Shown here: positions 2,947 through 64,000 of the stretch, piece by piece | Layout of the letters: every line of letters starts with the position of its first letter | How positions within the stretch are numbered: position 1 is the first letter of the stretch | Origin: an uncultured Clostridium sp. | GTDB taxonomy: Bacteria > Bacillota > Clostridia > TANB77 > CAG-508 | Assembly: GCA_946495905.1 (NCBI GenBank) | Contig: CAMMEP010000001.1 | Span: forward strand, 9,089 to 73,088 | Reading direction: 5' to 3' | DNA length: 64,000 bases | Translations under genes and position numbers: made by a program | Notes under the pieces: model-generated | What the model was told of the DNA's origin: nothing | The model's database searches: none | Seen by the model: only the letters and a program-made list of their open reading frames with translations

Positions 2947-3010
2947 ATTCCTAATTGGGGACAGGCACCAATTAGGAATATCCGGACAAAAAAGCCTGTC
3001 CCCAATTAGG
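2947..3010. promoter_or_regulatory. paired 19-bp inverted repeats TTCCTAATTGGGGACAGGC / GCCTGTCCCCAATTAGGAA with an alternative partner in between, abutting the RBS of the downstream gene
   Basis: Seen directly. The 3' arm ends 1 nt before the GGAGA RBS. A middle segment CCAATTAGGAA can pair with the 5' arm instead. A related motif recurs at 15793-15821 and 50466-50486. Confidence 0.4.
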
Positions 3011-3021
3011 AAGGAGAAAAA

Positions 3022-4627: not shown

Positions 4628-6325
4628 ATGAATAAAGAAGTATTAAAAGTTACAGATTTAAAAGATATGTTAAATAAAACAGGAGAACTTTATGGGGATA
4701 GACCAGGATATAAAATAAAAATAGGTGAAGGAAAATATAAGGTATATACACATAAAGAAATAAGAGACATGATAAATTATTTAGGAACAACACTAATTAG
4801 TTTAGGACTAAAGGATAAAAGAATTGCTGTTATTGGAGAAAATAGATATGAATGGGAGTTAGCATATTTATCAGTTGTTTGCGGTACAGGAATAGTTGTT
4901 CCAATAGACAAATCTTTACCAGCAAATGAGCTAGAAGAAGTAATAGAAAGATCAGAAGTAGAAGCAATATTTTACTCTCAAAAATATGAAGAAATTATTG
5001 AAAAAATAAAATATAGCGAAAAAAATAAATTAAAACATTTAATATCAATGGATTTAGATTCTAACATAGAGGGAATATACTCACAAAAAGAATTAATAGA
5101 AGTTGGTAAAAAACTAATTGAAGAAGGAAACAGAGAATTTTTAGATGCAAAAATAGACCCAGAAGCAATGAACATTATGTTATTTACATCAGGTACAACA
5201 TCAAAATCAAAAGTAGTGGCTTTATGCCACAGAAATCTAGTATCTAACTTAATGGATTTTGCAACTGTACTAGATATTAATTCAAGTGACAGAATGTTAT
5301 CATTTTTACCATTACATCATGTGTTTGAATGCACAGTAGGAATGCTATATTCTTTATATATAGGAGCTGAAAGGTCATTCTGTGAAGGAATTAGACATAT
5401 TACAGAAAATTTAAATGAATACAAAATAACATTTGCTTCCTTTGTTCCTGCTATTTATGAAAGTATGTATAAAACAATCTTAAAAGGTCTTGAAAAAGAA
5501 GGAAAATTAGAGGCTGTTAAAAAATTAATGCAAGAAAACAGAAATAAAACAATGGCAGAAAAGAAAGAAATATTCAAAGATATTCATAATTTATTTGGAG
5601 GATGTGTACGATTATTTGTTAGTGGAGCAGCAGCACTAGACCCAGAAGTAGAAAATGCATTCAGAGACTGGGGTATTAATTTATGCCAAGGATATGGGCT
5701 AACAGAAACATCCCCAGTTATAGGTGTTGAAACAGACGAAAACTTTAGAGTAGGTTCAATAGGAAAGCCACTTCCACATATACAAGCAAAAATAGAAGAT
5801 GCAAATGAAGAAGGTATGGGAGAACTTGTTGTAAAAGGGCCAAACATAATGCTTGGATACTATGGTGATGAGGAGGCAACAAAAGAAGTATTAAATGATG
5901 GATGGTTTGCTACAGGAGATTTAGCAAAAATAGACGAAGATGGATACATATTTATTTGTGGAAGAAAGAAAAGTGTTATTGTTTTAAAGAATGGTAAAAA
6001 TATATTCCCCGAAGAAATGGAGAATCTAGTAAACAAAATAGAAGGAGTAAAAGAATCTTTTATATTTGGAAAGCAACAATCTGAAGATAAAGAGGATATC
6101 AAAATAAATGTAAAAATTATATTTGATAGAGAAATTATGAAAGAAGCATATAAAGTAGAAACAGATGAAGAAATACGTAAAGTTTTATCAGATAAAATAA
6201 AAGATATAAATAGCATAATGCCAAAATATAAAGCAATTAGAGGAATGATAATTTCAGAAGAGCCACTAATTAAAACTACAACAGGTAAAATAAAAAGACA
6301 AGCAAATTTAGATGCGATGGCATAA
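4628..6325 (+). CDS. long-chain fatty acid--CoA ligase (AMP-dependent synthetase/ligase)
   Basis: AMP-binding motif TSGTTSKSKVV, GYGLTET, GWFATGDLA and GRKKSVIVLKNGKNIFPEE. GGAGG RBS before ATG at 4628. The ORF could extend to 4589. Confidence 0.8.
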   Translation: MNKEVLKVTDLKDMLNKTGELYGDRPGYKIKIGEGKYKVYTHKEIRDMINYLGTTLISLGLKDKRIAVIGENRYEWELAYLSVVCGTGIVVPIDKSLPANELEEVIERSEVEAIFYSQKYEEIIEKIKYSEKNKLKHLISMDLDSNIEGIYSQKELIEVGKKLIEEGNREFLDAKIDPEAMNIMLFTSGTTSKSKVVALCHRNLVSNLMDFATVLDINSSDRMLSFLPLHHVFECTVGMLYSLYIGAERSFCEGIRHITENLNEYKITFASFVPAIYESMYKTILKGLEKEGKLEAVKKLMQENRNKTMAEKKEIFKDIHNLFGGCVRLFVSGAAALDPEVENAFRDWGINLCQGYGLTETSPVIGVETDENFRVGSIGKPLPHIQAKIEDANEEGMGELVVKGPNIMLGYYGDEEATKEVLNDGWFATGDLAKIDEDGYIFICGRKKSVIVLKNGKNIFPEEMENLVNKIEGVKESFIFGKQQSEDKEDIKINVKIIFDREIMKEAYKVETDEEIRKVLSDKIKDINSIMPKYKAIRGMIISEEPLIKTTTGKIKRQANLDAMA

Positions 6326-6337
6326 CAAATTAGAGAG

Positions 6338-6374
6338 AAAGCAGGTTATTAGTTGTAAATAACCTGCTTTTATG
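6338..6374 (+). terminator. rho-independent terminator
   Basis: AAAGCAGGTTATT-loop-AATAACCTGCTTT followed by TTTT. Confidence 0.6.
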
Positions 6375-6413
6375 ATACAATACAAAAAATATTAAAAATA
6401 AATGGGGAAATTT

Positions 6414-6959
6414 ATGGAAAAAGATAAAATATTAGGAGTAGTTTTAGGAATATTATATTATTACGTGCTTTCAAAGATTTTTTCATTCTTGATGCTTTTT
6501 GAATTCATAGGAGGAACCATAAGTGGCTTTTCTAAAATATTATTCTTTATCTGCTATATTGTTTTACCAATAGTTATTTTAGCAATGCCAGTTATAATAA
6601 AATTTAAGTATAACAAGAAATTTTATAAAGCAATTTTAGATAGCATTGTATTTGTACTTCTTTATATATCTATTTGGATAACGATATGCTCTTGTATTTC
6701 AGTGTACTTTGAAACATTTTCTACTTACAAATGGAGCAATGAAAACTGGCATCGTTTTAGAGGAGATATGGTTGAAGATTTAGAAGAAAGATATGATTTG
6801 AAAGGCATGACAAAAGATGAAATACATGAACTTTTAGGAAAAGAAGATGGATACTCTGAAGAAGATAATGCAATTAGTTATTATATAGGAGAAGCAATTA
6901 ATTATTATATCTATTTTGATGAAAATGATGTAGTTATATATGCACGACAGTTAGCATGA
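6414..6959 (+). CDS. membrane protein, paralog A of a tandem pair (N-terminal TM helices plus conserved C-terminal KWSNENW...YIYFDENDVV domain)
   Basis: About 45% identical to the next gene over its full length (MEKDKILGVVLGILYY vs MKKDKIFGIILGILYY). Start chosen by alignment with the paralog. Confidence 0.6.
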   Translation: MEKDKILGVVLGILYYYVLSKIFSFLMLFEFIGGTISGFSKILFFICYIVLPIVILAMPVIIKFKYNKKFYKAILDSIVFVLLYISIWITICSCISVYFETFSTYKWSNENWHRFRGDMVEDLEERYDLKGMTKDEIHELLGKEDGYSEEDNAISYYIGEAINYYIYFDENDVVIYARQLA

Positions 6960-8949: not shown

Positions 8950-9095
8950 AAAGCTAGACAAAAATGAATAAATATAGTATAATTAGAGTACAATAAAGGT
9001 AGGTTATTTGAGGTGGACAAAAGTGCCATCCACACACCTGAATGGTCAAAAGAGATGCAGGATTTGGCACACCTGCCAAATAACCAAACAAGAAA

Positions 9096-13233: not shown

Positions 13234-13278
13234 TTGTGCACCTGTTACTATATAATGGCTTAATTAAAAGATACTATA

Positions 13279-13466
13279 AAAGCCAGATAAGATGTATATT
13301 TCTCAAATTTTTAAGTCGCTTGTTGTCGAAACCATATAAGCACAATTTAAGAAAATATATTTTCTTAAATTGTGCTAGGTTTCTTCAATCGCACTCGCCT
13401 AAAAGGCTCGTTTGGTCGCTACGCGCTCCTACAAAAATTTTCTAAATATACATCTTATCTGGCTTT
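13279..13466. repeat. structured palindromic repeat, family 1, copy 1 (23-bp perfect terminal inverted repeats, conserved core, internal 17-bp hairpin)
   Basis: AAAGCCAGATAAGATGTATATTT ... AAATATACATCTTATCTGGCTTT. The core is ~90% identical to 31780-31921. Confidence 0.7.
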
Positions 13467-13526
13467 AAAGGACATACTAAATTAACTATTAAACAGTAAT
13501 GAACAAGTGTGATTAATGGAGGTATT

Positions 13527-31706: not shown

Positions 31707-31754
31707 CGGTAACAAATCTCGTTACTAAATAATGGTATTATTAAATTTTATTTA

Positions 31755-31946
31755 TGCAATCCAACTAGTATGTATGTTTCTCAAATTTTTTTGTCGCTTG
31801 TTGTCGAAACCATCTAACCACAATTTCAGGAAATAAATTTCTGAAATTGTGCTAGGTTTCTTCAATCGCACTCGCCTTTGAAAAGGCTCGTTTGGTCGCT
31901 ACGCGCTCCTAAAAATTCTCTAAACATACATACTAGTTGGATTGTA
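31755..31946. repeat. structured palindromic repeat, family 1, copy 2
   Basis: CAATCCAACTAGTATGTATGTTT ... AAACATACATACTAGTTGGATTG. The core is ~90% identical to copy 1. Stem differences are compensated. Confidence 0.7.
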
Positions 31947-32077
31947 AGACGAAAAGAAATCAAAACTATTATCTAGTAACCAAATCTCTGACGATTTTTA
32001 GAAAAATAGTGATAATGCCTAACAAATGTGGTATTATATAACTAAAAGTTCTTTTATGCTTATTGGAGGGAAATACA

Positions 32078-35263: not shown

Positions 35264-35300
35264 GACTTAAATTGTCACAATTCACTGTTACCTTAATATC

Positions 35301-35450
35301 AAGAAGAAGTATATATTTTTTCTTTTTATTTCCGGCCCCCAACATCGTACAAACTGTAAATGCTCAATTTCATTTCGCTTAACAGTTTGTAAACTTGTCG
35401 GTCCCCACCTTAAGCACTCCAATAAAAAGAAAAAATATATACTTCTTCTT
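35301..35450. repeat. structured palindromic repeat, family 2, copy A (30-bp perfect terminal inverted repeats around a conserved core)
   Basis: AAGAAGAAGTATATATTTTTTCTTTTTATT ... AATAAAAAGAAAAAATATATACTTCTTCTT. Core: TCCGGCCCCCAACATCGTACAAACTGT...ACAGTTTGTAAACTTGTCGGTCCCCACCTTAAGCACTCC. Confidence 0.7.
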
Positions 35451-35599
35451 AAAAAATAGTCTGTGAATTTTACCATTTCAAATTCCATAAAATGTAAAAT
35501 TCAAAATGGTAAAATCTTGAAACTTACTAAAAAATGTGGTATAATATAATTTGTAACTCGTAGAAAAATGCATCGTCCAATTGGACAAAGGAGGACAAA

Positions 35600-48868: not shown

Positions 48869-48928
48869 ACTTGCGATTTTGTAGTTATTTTTAAATTTAC
48901 AGTTTAAAGTATAATATATTACCAGATT

Positions 48929-49221
48929 GTAGTGCTTTCTAAAAAAGTGTTATATATCACAGTCGCCTTTTGTCAGAGCAATGTATATTTTAAGTTTATG
49001 TTTCCAGCCCCCAACTGCATAACAGTCTGTAGTAAAAATTACATTGGTTTTCGCTTATATTCTACCTTGAAGAAAAAACAAGTTTTTTCTTCAAGAGTAA
49101 TTTTTCCACAGACTGTAACTTGTCGGTCCCCACCTTAAGCACTCCATCATAAACTTAAAATATACATTGCTCTGACATTTTTGAACAAGCTATGATTCGT
49201 AACACTTTTAGAAAGCACTAC
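48929..49221. repeat. structured palindromic repeat, family 2, copy B (nested inverted repeats; the core carries an extra internal hairpin insert)
   Basis: Outer inverted repeat GTAGTGCTTTCTAAAAAAGTGTTA / TAACACTTTTAGAAAGCACTAC. Inner inverted repeat CAGAGCAATGTATATTTTAAGTTTATG / CATAAACTTAAAATATACATTGCTCTG. Core shared with copies A and C. Confidence 0.7.
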
Positions 49222-49355
49222 GTACTGGTATATTAAATAAAATTTAATGTATGCAAACCTAAGCAATAACAAGTATTTCAATTTTTCAATGCATAAAAAA
49301 CCCTTTTATGCATACAATAATGAAAAGGACAAGTTCAAAAAGGTGATTATTACAT

Positions 49356-55906: not shown

Positions 55907-56113
55907 TAGTTACAATTCACGGTTATTTTTGATCGGAGCAATGTATGTTTTAATTTTATGTTGGAGTGCTTAAGGTGGGGACCGACAAGTTTACAAACTG
56001 TTAAACTGAACGAATGTGAAGTTTTTACAGTTTGTACGATGTTGGGGGCCGAAAACATAAAATTAAAACATACATTGCTCCAACATTTTAGAATAGCCTG
56101 TGAATTGTAACTA
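55907..56113. repeat. structured palindromic repeat, family 2, copy C (opposite orientation to A and B)
   Basis: Inner inverted repeat GGAGCAATGTATGTTTTAATTTTATG / CATAAAATTAAAACATACATTGCTCC (26 bp, perfect). Outer inverted repeat TAGTTACAATTCAC / GTGAATTGTAACTA. The core is the reverse complement of the A/B core. Confidence 0.7.
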
Positions 56114-57424: not shown

Positions 57425-57616
57425 TAACGGCTCAGATGGGTAAACCTGTTTAATAGTATTAAAATTAGATATGTCCTGCAACGGGAGTTTTAATTAAAAA
57501 AATCTCGCTTCGTCCCGACGGAGCTCCCTGCTCCGCTCGATTTTTTAATTATAAACTCCCAGCGCGGACTTTAAATAATCTATACTATTAAACAGGTTTA
57601 CCCATCTGAGCCGTTA
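57425..57616. repeat. 192-bp imperfect palindrome (family 3): 35-bp perfect terminal inverted repeats, nested inner inverted repeat, GC-rich centre around GGAGCTCC
   Basis: TAACGGCTCAGATGGGTAAACCTGTTTAATAGTAT ... ATACTATTAAACAGGTTTACCCATCTGAGCCGTTA. Inner GGGAGTTTTAATTAAAAAAATC / GATTTTTTAATTATAAACTCCC. Centre TCGCTTCGTCCCGACGGAGCTCCCTGCTCCGCTCGA. Confidence 0.6.
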
Positions 57617-60503: not shown

Positions 60504-60732
60504 TATCAATAGTCGTAGCGATTTCTAATAAAGAAAAAAGTTTGAAAAATATATGAATTGTTGCCATTTTGTTGCCAAACTAAAATAAAATTGCTAGAAC
60601 CATTGAAAATACTGCATTTTATCTTGGCAACAAAAATGGCGACAAATTGAAACAATTATAATAACCAAAAAAGCTAACATATAGAAAGTGTTAGCTCATT
60701 TTTTATTTACTAAAAATTTGGAGGTAAAAAAT

Positions 60733-62000
60733 ATGGTTAGTGTAAGAAAAAGAGGAAATGTTTATCAATATCAATTTGATATTGCACCAGTTGATGGTAA
60801 AAGAAAGCGAATTACAAAATCTGGTTTTAAAACGAAAGGAGAAGCAGAAAAAGCAGGTATAATTGCTTATAATGAATATACACAGACAGGACATAATTTT
60901 ACACCAAGCACAATTTCCTACTCTGATTATTTAGATTATTGGTTGAAAGAACATTGTGAAATTAATCTAAGATACCATACAATACGAGCATATAGTAACA
61001 TAATAAAAAATCATATAAAACCCAATATTGGTTTCTATAGATTATCACAAATTACTACTTCAACATTACAAGAATTCATAAATAAAATATATGTAGAAAA
61101 AAGTTTTTCAAAAAATTTTTTAAAAAACATTTTAAAGGTATTAAAAACATCTTTTGCCTATGCAACAGATGTAGTAGGATTTGTAAAAGAAAATCCAGCA
61201 TTAAAAGTTAAATTACCAAAATATGATGTACCAGATCCTGATCCTGCACATATTTTTACAAAAGAGGAAATTGATATGATTTTGAATAGATTTAAAAAAA
61301 ATCATGCTTTCTATTACGCAGCTTTAACAGCATATTATACGGGATTAAGAGTTTCAGAAGTTTTTGCTTTAACATGGGATGACATAGATTTAGAGAATAA
61401 GACTTTAACTGTAAATAAAAATGTAATAGAAAAAATCATATTGGTAGCACACATGGCAGACACTTGAGCGGTAAAGCAAAAACTGTTTGGTATTTTGGTA
61501 ACTGTAAGACACCTTCTAGTTATAGAACTATAGATATAGGTAATACATTAGTAAATGCTTTAAAGGAATTCAAAGAAGAACAAGCAAGGCATAAAGAAGA
61601 ATATGGAGATTCGTATATGAAACATTATGCCAAAGAAGTTTTAAATCCATATACCAATAAACCAGAAACAAAAATTATTAATGCACTTGCTGAAATAGAT
61701 GTAGCACTTCCAGAGGTTAATTTAGTATTTGTAAAGAACAATGGAGTGTTTGAAGGTACTGCAACAGTCAAATATCCATTTAAAGTTATTCACTATGAAT
61801 TAGGAATTTTATGTAGATTTCATGACTTTAGAGATACACATGCAACAAAGCTAATTGAAAATGGAGCAGATGTTAAAGCAGTTGCTAAAAGATTAGGACA
61901 CAGTACAATTAGAACAACTTATGAAATTTATGTTAAAGTTACTAGCAAAATGGAATCGGATGTTGTTAATAAATTTGAAGAATATGCTATGTCAAAATAA
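60733..62000 (+). pseudogene. int: tyrosine-type site-specific integrase split by a frameshift in an A-run (~61430-61436)
   Basis: N-terminal arm-binding/SAM-like domain in 60733-61467. Catalytic domain (RFHDFRDTHAT...LGHSTIRTTYEIYVKV with the R, H-x-x-R and Y residues) in 61464-62000 in another frame. The frame switch coincides with GAAAAAATC. Confidence 0.7.
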
Positions 62001-62083
62001 AAAATTAAATTAATAGTAAACTACAGATTTGTAACATTATTACAAACTGTGGTTTATTTTTTTTGCTTTAAAAGGAGGTAAAA

Positions 62084-62545
62084 ATGGAAAGGTTAAAATT
62101 AGTAAAATCTTTAGAAAATAAAAAATTATATACAAGAGAAACGGCAAAAATGACTCTTGAAAATGTAATAAAACGAATTAAAGAAGCAAATAGGAATGAT
62201 GAATTTATTTATAAAATTACTAAAGCAGTCTTATTTGGTTCATATATAAATTCAAACAAAGAAAAAGTTGGAGATTTAGATATTGCAATATATATCGAAC
62301 TAAAAGATAAGTCTAAACCAGAGCTAGAACAAAATATGGAAAGAGCTAGTACATCTAATAGTTATGTACCATTCATATTAAAATTTATATATGGAAAAGA
62401 AGAAGTGTTTAAGTATATTAAAGACAAAAAACATATATTGCAATTACACGATGGAAATAAAGTTGATAAGGATTCAAAGGAACACAAAGAACCACTTAGT
62501 TATATATATTTTGATAAATACAAAATAATATATGAGGAGGTGTAA
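62084..62545 (+). CDS. nucleotidyltransferase (minimal Pol-beta-fold NTase) domain protein
   Basis: VLFGSYINSNKEKVGDLDIAIY matches the GS...D.D NTase signature. Confidence 0.55.
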   Translation: MERLKLVKSLENKKLYTRETAKMTLENVIKRIKEANRNDEFIYKITKAVLFGSYINSNKEKVGDLDIAIYIELKDKSKPELEQNMERASTSNSYVPFILKFIYGKEEVFKYIKDKKHILQLHDGNKVDKDSKEHKEPLSYIYFDKYKIIYEEV

Positions 62546-62549
62546 TAAA

Positions 62550-62651
62550 ATGTGGCAATTTCTTTTAGGATTATTTATAGGAGCAAATGTTTCACTTTTT
62601 CTATATGCAATTATATTAGCAGGAAAGAGAAGTGAAAATAGAGATGAATGA
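62550..62651 (+). CDS. small hydrophobic peptide ORF (33 aa, MWQFLLGLFIGANVSLFLYAIILAGKRSENRDE)
   Basis: RBS GAGGAGGTG 7 nt upstream. One predicted TM helix. Not in the supplied track. Confidence 0.25.
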   Translation: MWQFLLGLFIGANVSLFLYAIILAGKRSENRDE

Positions 62652-63454
62652 AGAAAATAAAATTGGTTATTATGCAATAATACCTTCTACAGTATTATTT
62701 AATGAAAGAATAAAGGCAAATGAAAAATTATTATATGCAGTTATTACAGTTCTATCTAACAAAGAGGGATATTGTTATGCTTCAAATACTTATCTAGGTA
62801 AACTATTAAAAGCCCAACCTCATACAATTTCTAAATGGGTATCACATTTAAAAAGTTTAGGTTTTTTATGTTTAGATATTATTAAAAATGATAAAGGCGA
62901 AATAATACAAAGGAGAATTTATCCAAATGATACCCCCCTATACGATAAATAGGACATACCCCTATTCGACAGATGGGACAGAGGGTATGTCCCCAAAAGG
63001 ACAATATAATAATATAATAGATAATAATATAAATAAAGAAAAGATAGATAGATTATTTAATTATATAATAGATAAAGAAAAAGAAATTCCAAAAGAATTT
63101 GTTAATGTTGATTTAAATGAAATAAATGTTGCATTAAAAAGATTTGATATGTTATATCCAAAACCAATTCTAGATATAATGTCTGAAGAAAATTTAGAAT
63201 CTGTAAAAAATATAACTTATATTATTGCTTTAATAGTTAAAAATAAATTATTTCATTTATCAAATAAAATAACGAGAGATAAACTCATACAGATATGTAA
63301 TGACTGTAAAGATAGAGAAAAACAAAATGAGGGAACAGAAAAAAGAATAGAGAATTTTATTAATTATTTTTATAAAAGCATAGAAAATGAATTAACGAAG
63401 GAAAGTAAAGGACCTTCTTTTTTTATGCCTAATAATGATGAAATTGAAATTTAA
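62632..63454 (+). CDS. phage/plasmid replication-initiator-like protein (winged-helix N-terminal domain), read as two ORFs (62632-62952 and 62927-63454) that a 1-nt change in a C6 run (62933-62938) would fuse
   Basis: N-terminus YYAIIPSTVLFNERIKANEKLLYAVITVLSNKEGYCYASNTYLGKLL...TISKWVSHLKSLGFL resembles RepA-N/replisome-organiser wHTH domains. The overlap region carries iteron-like repeats. Confidence 0.4.
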
Positions 63455-63516
63455 AGGAGGTGGTTTTATGCTCTAACTAATAAAAAAAATAAAATTAAAA
63501 AGAAAGGAGTTCGCCT

Positions 63517-63837
63517 ATGAAAATTTACAGAGTTATCTTCAAAAGTATTGATATAGATGAAGCTGACAACACACTAATAATTACAACTTTTCAAAATAGA
63601 GAGCTTGCTGAACAATACCTTAAAGAAAGAATTGAAGAACTAAAAGAACAAGAAGAAATTTTAAAACAAGATGATTATGTAACAGAAGAAAGAAAGAATT
63701 ATTACGAAAGATATTTAAATGGTAGAGGAATAGAAGATTCAGTATCAATATATCTTGAAGAAGATGAAACTTATGATGAAATAATGCTAAAAGAAAAAGC
63801 AGAAAGATTAGAAAAGGAAAATAATTATGAAATGTAA
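63517..63837 (+). CDS. hypothetical acidic coiled-coil protein
   Basis: RBS AAAGGAG. Glu/Lys-rich. No recognised family. Confidence 0.45.
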   Translation: MKIYRVIFKSIDIDEADNTLIITTFQNRELAEQYLKERIEELKEQEEILKQDDYVTEERKNYYERYLNGRGIEDSVSIYLEEDETYDEIMLKEKAERLEKENNYEM

Positions 63838-64000
63838 AGTTTTAATTGTTTTACTGATTTTAATTTGTATTATTGCTTTTTGCTTTTATATTTTTATTAT
63901 ATTTAATGACTTTCAAGAAAAAGAAGAAAGCAACAAAGATACTGAAAACCTTATAAAAGAAACAATAATAGTAAATGAAGAAACAGAAGAAAAAAACATT
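63827..64000 (+). CDS. hypothetical small membrane protein (3' end beyond window)
   Basis: ATG overlaps the end of the previous gene. MKCKVLIVLLILICIIAFCFYIFIIF is a TM helix. Confidence 0.35.
   Translation, partial: MKCKVLIVLLILICIIAFCFYIFIIFNDFQEKEESNKDTENLIKETIIVNEETEEKNI

Follow-up and report, generated by a model that had tools for sequence, protein, structure and literature searches.

Bacterial MITEs, or miniature inverted-repeat transposable elements, are recognized by their terminal inverted repeats and target duplications, by the lack of a transposase and by long stem-loops (PMC3184786). Among those described, Chunjie of Geobacter is A+T-rich and 178-235 bp long, has 21-bp terminal repeats and a 9-bp duplication, and is predicted to fold with roughly -98 to -130 kcal/mol; in the Bacillus cereus group, bcr1 keeps its double-stranded structure through base-pair compensatory changes (PMC3184786). 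Here we analyzed a structured intergenic repeat, called family 1, that is present in two copies in a 64,000-nt stretch of DNA from an uncultured Clostridium sp. (GenBank assembly GCA_946495905.1, contig CAMMEP010000001.1; GC content, 28.8%). The whole of this stretch is referred to below as the window. We propose that the two repeats are, with high probability, copies of a fold-back MITE that is mobilized in trans, and that concerted evolution of a DNA palindrome would account for their compensated stems.

Family 1 resembles Chunjie and the Correia/nemis elements of Neisseria (PMC3184786): it is small, non-coding, intergenic and strain-variable, and it has terminal repeats, a target duplication and a stable long stem-loop. 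It differs from them in its GTTAC... ends and 8-bp duplication, in that its asymmetric center, and not only its ends, is most conserved, and in that its inner stems are perfect despite 30% divergence; a partner insertion sequence is not known. The target duplication of Correia elements is TA. With bcr1, family 1 shares the character of a Firmicute MITE-like repeat that has short flanking direct repeats and a distribution that is not conserved between close strains, but bcr1 measures ~155 bp, is flanked by 5-bp direct repeats and forms a cruciform-like structure of two stem-loops (PMC3184786). There is no sequence similarity between the two, and the stems of family 1 are longer and perfect. The bcr1 repeats are high-copy and transcribed. 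Family 1 itself appears to be an undescribed sequence family, with no matches in the collections that we searched; the kind of element is well known.

Results

An empty site for copy 2

We looked up the exact proteins adjoining the two copies in public assemblies and examined ~350 kb of related loci, together with 17 kb of extra flank around the window. The response regulator encoded 3' of copy 2 was found as an identical protein on 22 contigs, and the spacer between the FtsX and regulator genes was mostly 371 bp long, as it is in the window. In one locus, from a sister strain (L031, Logan SRR13292356), the same identical regulator is preceded by a spacer of 103 bp. The two spacers thus differ by 268 bp, which is the sum of the element (260 bp) and an 8-bp duplication. 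The L031 site reads ...GGTAACAAATCTCTGACG... (over a longer stretch, ...GGTAACAAATCTCTGACGATTTTT...) and contains CAAATCTC once. The occupied site of the window, with the element enclosed in brackets, reads ...GGTAACAAATCTC[GTTACTAAAT...260 bp...CTAGTAAC]CAAATCTCTGACG... or, with the termini spelled out, ...GGTAACAAATCTC[GTTACTAAATAATGG ... CTATTATCTAGTAAC]CAAATCTCTGACGATTTTT..., and its flanks, which are near-identical to those of L031, align with them base for base. What L031 lacks is precisely the element and one of the two duplication copies, and we conclude that stems, arms and core came as a single unit.

A first-pass annotation, made from the letters of the window, had offered a hairpin-forming MITE-like element as one reading of these repeats and had proposed a comparison of occupied and empty sites. 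That comparison found copy 2 unoccupied in L031 and uncovered its 8-bp target duplication; together with the terminal inverted repeats described below, the empty site and the duplication support the MITE-like reading. In L031 (4791-5697), an additional pair of VbhA/Fic toxin-antitoxin-like genes, which is not in the window, separates the histidine kinase gene from the ODP/flavodoxin gene.

Copy 1 was occupied in all same-species contigs examined, with at most one single-nucleotide polymorphism (L002-L009, L035-L043, L052-L054), and no empty site for it was found among these contigs. In relatives at 88-90% LarC identity, the DUF362-larC spacers are 83-158 bp long, unrelated in sequence and without the element. 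These spacers are too diverged to align, and the boundaries of copy 1 are those given by homology to copy 2 only.

Layout of the element

The first-pass annotation had described a unit of ~190 bp with no extended flanking homology. The unit proved to be larger, at 257-260 bp (Table 1): homology and inverted symmetry reach ~35 nt beyond the 23-bp stems on each side. Past the terminal repeats homology does end, and this part of the description stands. From the outside inward, the element consists of a terminal repeat, a loosely paired outer arm of ~20 nt, a perfect 23-bp stem and an asymmetric 142-nt core with hairpins of its own. The terminal repeats of family 1 can be written as 5' GTTACTAWATAATGG and 3' CTATTA...AGTAAY, and copy 2 ends in GTTACTA...TAGTAAC. 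Comparing the two ends of copy 2, GTTACTAAATAATGG and GTTACTAGATAATAG (the latter as reverse complement), we observed agreement at 13 of 15 positions, with the outermost 7 bp perfect. The 5' termini of the two copies are identical at 14/15 positions; the 3' end of copy 1 has decayed to ...CAGTAAT. Pairwise alignment of the two copies gave 84.6% identity over 214 nt, and folding of a single strand, compared with dinucleotide shuffles, gave z scores of -10.3 and -11.9.

Both copies are intergenic, oriented like their co-directional neighbor genes, and free of any open reading frame (ORF) conserved between them, having short non-conserved ORFs only; here the first-pass annotation was right on every point. 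A protein search with the concatenated six-frame translations of three copies, made to catch spurious ORFs over other copies, gave no match. Family 1 has the features of a MITE: a size below ~400 bp, terminal inverted repeats, an 8-bp duplication (copy 2), no coding capacity and an occupied/empty polymorphism.

Table 1. Positions of the two family-1 copies, their parts, and the other hairpin elements of the window
Feature	Position	Strand	Details
Family-1 copy 1, 257 bp	13244..13500	+	between DUF362 gene and larC; extent defined through homology with copy 2
Copy 1 left terminal inverted repeat	13244..13258	+	GTTACTATATAATGG; 14/15 identical to copy 2 terminus
Copy 1 proximal stem, 5' arm	13279..13301	+	AAAGCCAGATAAGATGTATATTT; all 23 bp paired to 13444-13466
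Copy 1 asymmetric conserved core, 142 nt	13302..13443	+	blocks GTCGCTTGTTGTCGAAACCAT, CTAGGTTTCTTCAATCGCACTCGCC, GGCTCGTTTGGTCGCTACGCGCTCC
Copy 1 inner palindromic hairpin, 17-19 bp	13339..13376	.	terminator-like on both strands
Copy 1 proximal stem, 3' arm	13444..13466	+	AAATATACATCTTATCTGGCTTT
Copy 1 right terminal inverted repeat	13486..13500	+	CTATTAAACAGTAAT; degenerate
Copy 2 left target-site duplication	31713..31720	.	CAAATCTC; single in L031 empty site
Family-1 copy 2, 260 bp	31721..31980	+	between FtsX-type ABC permease gene and response-regulator gene; missing in L031
Copy 2 proximal stem, 5' arm	31757..31779	+	CAATCCAACTAGTATGTATGTTT; all 23 bp paired to 31922-31944
Copy 2 conserved core, 142 nt	31780..31921	+	
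Copy 2 proximal stem, 3' arm	31922..31944	+	AAACATACATACTAGTTGGATTG
Copy 2 right target-site duplication	31981..31988	.	CAAATCTC
Family-2 hairpin element	~35274-35473		perfect stem 30 bp
Family-2 hairpin element	~48920-49230		perfect stem 30 bp
Family-2 hairpin element, inverted	55909-56111		perfect stem 28 bp; 12-bp perfect ends GTTACAATTCAC/GTGAATTGTAAC; 8-bp duplication AAATACTA/TAATACTA
Third hairpin element	arms 57425-57459 / 57582-57616		perfect stem 35 bp; 122-nt GC-richer core ...CTCGCTTCGTCCCGACGGAGCTCCCTGCTCCGCTCG...

Divergence of the stems

Each copy has a perfect 23-bp stem whose arms are separated by 142 nt. About 1e-5 perfect inverted repeats of 23 bp within 400 nt would be expected in 64 kb, as estimated from the base composition of the window. 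Between copies 1 and 2 the stems differ at 7 of 23 positions, and all 7 differences are accompanied by the complementary change on the opposite arm; on both the perfection and the compensation of the stems, the sequences bear out what the first-pass annotation had claimed. If 7 second-arm changes are randomly placed and chosen, the probability of full compensation is ~2e-9. The covariation that had been described for the inner structures was less clean. The inner hairpin does show one compensated pair between the window copies, but its other change is one G·T pair or a bulge. The small GCCT..AGGC hairpin differs between the window copies in loop and length only, although a C-G to T-A change is found in L022, the copy from another organism described below.

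How can the stems stay paired while they diverge? Identity between copies 1 and 2 is uneven along the element: 93% and 73% in the terminal 15 nt, 57-59% in the outer arms, 70% in the 23-bp stems and 90% in the 142-nt core (core versus all arms together, the latter at 64%; Fisher p = 4e-6). Inside a single copy, complementarity is ~70-75% in the outer arms, compared with 100% in the inner 23 bp, and the value for the outer arms is approximately that expected for arms diverging independently at the between-copy rate. Because the outer arms are uncompensated while the inner 23 bp are perfect, a process acts specifically on the inner stem.

The nature of the changes bears on what this process may be. 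The perfect stems of the six hairpin elements in the window (23, 23, 30, 30, 28 and 35 bp) add up to 169 bp, free of mismatches and of G·T pairs. RNA helices usually contain some G·U pairs. Moreover, 4 of the 7 paired stem changes are transversion pairs (A-T to C-G, G-C to T-A) and hence cannot arise via a G·U wobble intermediate. Stem divergence between the copies is 30%, similar to that of the uncompensated outer arms (~40%). Divergence at such a neutral rate fits single mutations copied across the arms about half the time and does not fit a wait for two independent hits. Finally, both strands fold equally well, the minus strand being slightly better in 3 of 4 copies.

Template switching has been documented to make or repair perfect stems in single events (PMC8794818). 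In quasipalindrome correction, which proceeds by template-switch mutation, one arm is copied from the other, so that multi-base compensated changes appear at once and without G·U intermediates (Monttinen & Loytynoja 2022, PMC8794818). The family-1 pattern matches this process, which is a mechanism and not an element family, and which leaves the imperfect outer arms and the conserved core unexplained. We infer from these comparisons that maintenance of the palindrome at the DNA level is more likely than classical RNA compensatory evolution to be the better fit to the stem pattern. Intra-strand templated repair within a DNA palindrome had been raised in the first-pass annotation as a non-selective alternative; the pattern is consistent with it, and it seems to us the likelier cause.

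The core behaves differently from the arms. Three of its blocks, GTCGCTTGTTGTCGAAACCAT, CTAGGTTTCTYCAATCGCACTCGC and GCTCGTTTGGTCGCTACGCGCTCC, are nearly invariant in L022. In ordinary MITEs, the ends are conserved and the middle drifts. Possible reasons for the conservation of the core are a function of its own (as RNA or as a protein-binding site), hypermutability of the palindromic arms about a core evolving at the normal pace, and recent core exchange between elements, of which the L021 mosaic described below is suggestive.

Further copies and related hairpin elements

A metagenome scan with one 24-nt core block as the query returned two loci. The first, L022, is a full copy from another low-GC (27%) spore-former, where it lies between uppP and dpaA, antisense to both. 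Across the core and inner stem it is ~82% identical to the window copies. Its stem is 17 bp long with one G·T pair; the inner 11 bp alone are homologous to the window stems, and the outer 6 bp are unrelated. The inner hairpin of L022 is largely different in sequence, yet forms a perfect 12-bp stem. The second locus, L021 (150-330, minus strand), contains a mosaic of ~130 bp whose neighbors are genes for an S41 peptidase and a tRNA. Combined in this mosaic are an end of the family-2 type, GTTACAATTCACGG, a repeat at the flanks, AACTTGGT/AACTTGAC, and a perfect 13-bp stem of unrelated sequence, the loop of which consists of 43 nt that match window positions 13406-13448 (copy 1) at 100%. This mosaic suggests module exchange between MITE families.

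Additional searches were negative. A covariance model of the core, run over 347 kb (window plus loci), found no further copies, its sole weak match being L021, and the 17 kb of additional flank held no further family-1 copy. The element had no blastn match in plasmids and phages; its terminal 45 nt and the family-2 element gave chance-level matches or none in plasmids, and four scans of viral contigs with core blocks gave none. In species-representative genomes, an exact 21-mer had one chance match, inside an ORF of an Oligoflexia metagenome-assembled genome that is otherwise dissimilar to the element, and no element copy with that 21-mer was found. Logan short-read contigs start or stop inside the core at 13413, 13391 and 13368 (L007, L010, L011, L023, L054, L042). 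Such breaks within the core are as expected for a dispersed repeat and suggest that more copies exist elsewhere in the genome.

An inverted-repeat scan located at least four hairpin MITEs in the window besides the two family-1 copies (Table 1). Three of them share the family-2 core, ...CC(G/A)GCCCCCAAC...ACTTGTCGGTCCCCACCTTAAGCACTCC, and their stems differ between copies. The motif (A)TGTATRTTT occurs in stems of both family 2 and family 1, and the stem of the third element holds CTGTTTAATAGT, a sequence identical to family-1 copy 1 in its 3' terminal region when the latter is read as reverse complement. Because the element at 55909-56111 has GTTAC-type ends and an 8-bp duplication, we conclude that it moved in the same way as family 1; its end is also found in L021. 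Family 1 thus belongs to a local fold-back MITE group, whose members have GTTAC...GTAAC ends, duplications of 8 bp and cores that are interchangeable.

One locus of another strain sheds light on how stems become imperfect. In L026, positions 6187-6460 are the orthologue of window positions 35264-35520. The 5' arm and core of the family-2 element are as in the window, and the 3' arm has 2 substitutions and 1 indel, which leaves the stem imperfect; the downstream flank is different and contains a SpoU methylase gene. This chimera appears to stem from a rearrangement in which two MITE copies recombined. Imperfect stems, then, do arise by recombination.

Perfect hairpins built on GGGGACAG / CTGTCCCC or CCCCAACTGCACAATT lie in intergenic spacers, both in the window (2948-3012) and in related species (L012 9935-9970, L045 17810-17930 and L024 1120-1160). 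The one in the window has 19-bp arms, TTCCTAATTGGGGACAGGC / GCCTGTCCCCAATTAGGAA. These hairpins may form another small repeat family, with a likeness to the 5' part of the family-2 core.

The gene setting of the window is one of Clostridia-like housekeeping genes. Copy 1 is found by DUF362/larC and copy 2 by an FtsX/MacB-type permease and a two-component system, and uvrB, uvrA and secA follow further along. Right after secA, in the region 60688-64000, a phage-type integrase is divided between two ORFs (60688-61467 and 61464-62000), and small mobile-element-type genes come next; in other contigs (L048, L050) this region runs on into hypothetical genes and one for a sortase. The region is a probable integrated element. 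The sole Rfam match of the window is a skipping-rope RNA (RF02924) at 9003-9084 on the plus strand, which scored 69.9 bits against a gathering score of 36.7.

Discussion

The family-1 repeats are best described as MITEs that would be mobilized in trans by a transposase encoded elsewhere. This transposase would make staggered cuts of 8 bp, and the length of the duplication points to an enzyme of the DDE type. Copy 2 is probably a recent insertion for which the population is still polymorphic, and copy 1 is probably older and fixed, with a decayed terminal end and target duplication. Once in place, the two arms of a stem may evolve in concert, one arm being copied from the other by replication template switching. 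Selection may help by favoring a hairpin, be it in single-stranded DNA or read-through RNA, and may confine perfection to the inner stem.

Where might the transposase come from? Clostridial IS6-like elements (among them ISCpe7, ISCbo1 and ISTps1; clades VII and VIII) make 8-bp duplications and have longer terminal repeats, mostly without a GG start (Harmer & Hall 2019, PMC6807381). This group is a plausible source of the transposase, matched by duplication length, the text of that paper giving no terminal-repeat sequences. An 8-bp duplication is compatible with several DDE transposase families, the clostridial IS6-like group among them. Duplications of this length are also made by the IS256, ISL3, IS66 and IS1595 families.

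Could the repeat instead be a structured non-coding RNA gene or a cis-regulatory RNA whose stems are kept by RNA selection, with mobility incidental or with the RNA riding in a MITE? Several observations would agree with an RNA: the fold z scores of -10 to -12, unpaired core blocks that are near-invariant while the hairpins vary, 17 of 89 predicted pairs that keep pairing through two-sided changes (a count that rests on three sequences: copy 1, copy 2 and L022), and the direction that 3 of 4 copies share with their flanking genes. However, the Rfam covariance search that had been proposed as a check returned nothing relevant, with no family match at gathering scores or at E <= 10 and with chance miRNA-hairpin matches (E >= 0.03) as the best within the elements. 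Gene context is not conserved, the orthologous spacers of close relatives are without the element, and L022 is antisense to both of its neighbors. The minus strand folds as well or better, the 169 bp of perfect stem in six elements contain no G·U pair, most double changes are transversion pairs, and in promoter scans of the element, which were at background level, none stood out. A structured RNA under selection, which the first-pass annotation had offered as one reading, is not supported as the primary identity of the repeat; we consider it improbable, with the unusual conservation of the unpaired core in its favor. A more elaborate possibility is that hairpin MITEs of this kind are more than inert DNA: the conserved core might be a mobile structured RNA or protein-binding module displayed between perfect double-stranded stems of at least 23 bp, perhaps to be released from read-through transcripts by RNase III, with ends, stems and cores shuffled between elements; alternatively or additionally, frequent template switching would perfect the stems. 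We regard this composite reading as unlikely.

The other explanations concern how the repeats came to be where they are. That the core is a smaller element inserted into pre-existing palindromes (terminators or REP-like hairpins), the stems being derived from the target, would explain why stems vary between copies while the core is conserved, why a perfect 13-bp hairpin of unrelated sequence has the 43-nt core piece in its loop in L021, and why, in its outer 6 bp, the stem of L022 bears no relation to those of the window copies. The L031 empty site, however, has no palindrome: stems, arms and core arrived jointly between the copies of CAAATCTC (a CAATCTC-type target), which largely refutes this idea for copy 2. 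The stems of copies 1 and 2 are also homologous (16/23), as are their outer arms and terminal repeats, and outside the hairpin of L021 there are a GTTAC end of its own and a direct repeat at the flanks. Core insertion is thus very unlikely. Still less credible is a REP/REPIN or an IS200/IS605-derived palindrome moved by a Y1 transposase (RAYT/TnpA) via single-stranded hairpins. The long hairpin with its conserved asymmetric center would suit such an element, and the reverse-strand core contains GTAGCGAC, which is similar to the GTAG tag of REPs. A REP has GTAG or CGTC as a tag at one end of its palindrome and is associated with a RAYT gene. But elements mobilized by Y1 enzymes make no target duplication and have subterminal hairpins in place of terminal repeats, and family 1 ends in true terminal inverted repeats and has a clean target-site duplication of 8 bp. 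Within the window we saw neither a RAYT nor a TnpA gene. Family 1 also measures 260 bp and has AT-rich stems, compared with REPs, which are given as 20-40 bp and G+C-rich (PMC3184786; PMC3733652). Segmental duplication or chance, with no mobility at all, has a negligible probability. Although the window holds just two copies, in the same orientation, their homology ends exactly at the terminal repeats, the presence/absence polymorphism with its target duplication refutes a segmental duplication, and extra copies lie in unrelated contexts (L021, L022); as for chance, the expectation for such stems is negligible.

Other candidates were considered and rejected. The ends of family 1 do not fit the core-site consensus of an integron attC site, GTTRRRY, and the flanking genes are housekeeping genes. 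No reverse transcriptase gene that would belong to a retron msr/msd is nearby. A leader or riboswitch of larC or of the response regulator is rejected on the ground that the element is missing upstream of the same genes in relatives, and a terminator invaded by the core on the ground that the empty site has no hairpin.

Not everything that we observed sits well with a MITE whose stems are maintained by template switching. Neither a transposase nor an autonomous element with GTTAC ends turned up in the window, across the related loci (~350 kb) or among the plasmid, phage and viral sequences searched. The number of known copies is low: 2 in ~81 kb of the species, 1 full copy in another organism and 1 short derivative. 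Copy 1 has no recognizable target-site duplication (GTGCACCT versus GAACAAGT). Template switching alone does not account for the restriction of perfection to the inner 23 bp. The core is better conserved than the arms, with unpaired blocks that are near-invariant in L022, which hints at a function outside the simple MITE model. Lastly, the three non-Watson-Crick stem positions (two in L022, one in copy 2) are all G·T on the plus strand, a weak hint of a plus-strand RNA. All of these points count against our interpretation.

What would a fold-back MITE of this kind mean for the genome and for the reading of such repeats? For annotation, two structured intergenic regions and at least four more in the window are explained as mobile DNA and not as regulatory RNA; fully compensated stems alone are not evidence of a functional RNA. 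For genome dynamics, the elements mark insertion polymorphism (L031), act as recombination substrates (L026) and break short-read assemblies. The conserved unpaired core is possibly a functional module carried by a MITE. Perfect stems at neutral divergence are a possible clean natural example of compensation driven by template switching. If the template-switching part of our proposal is true, this genome would offer a natural system for the study of compensatory evolution with mutation, and not selection, as its driver.

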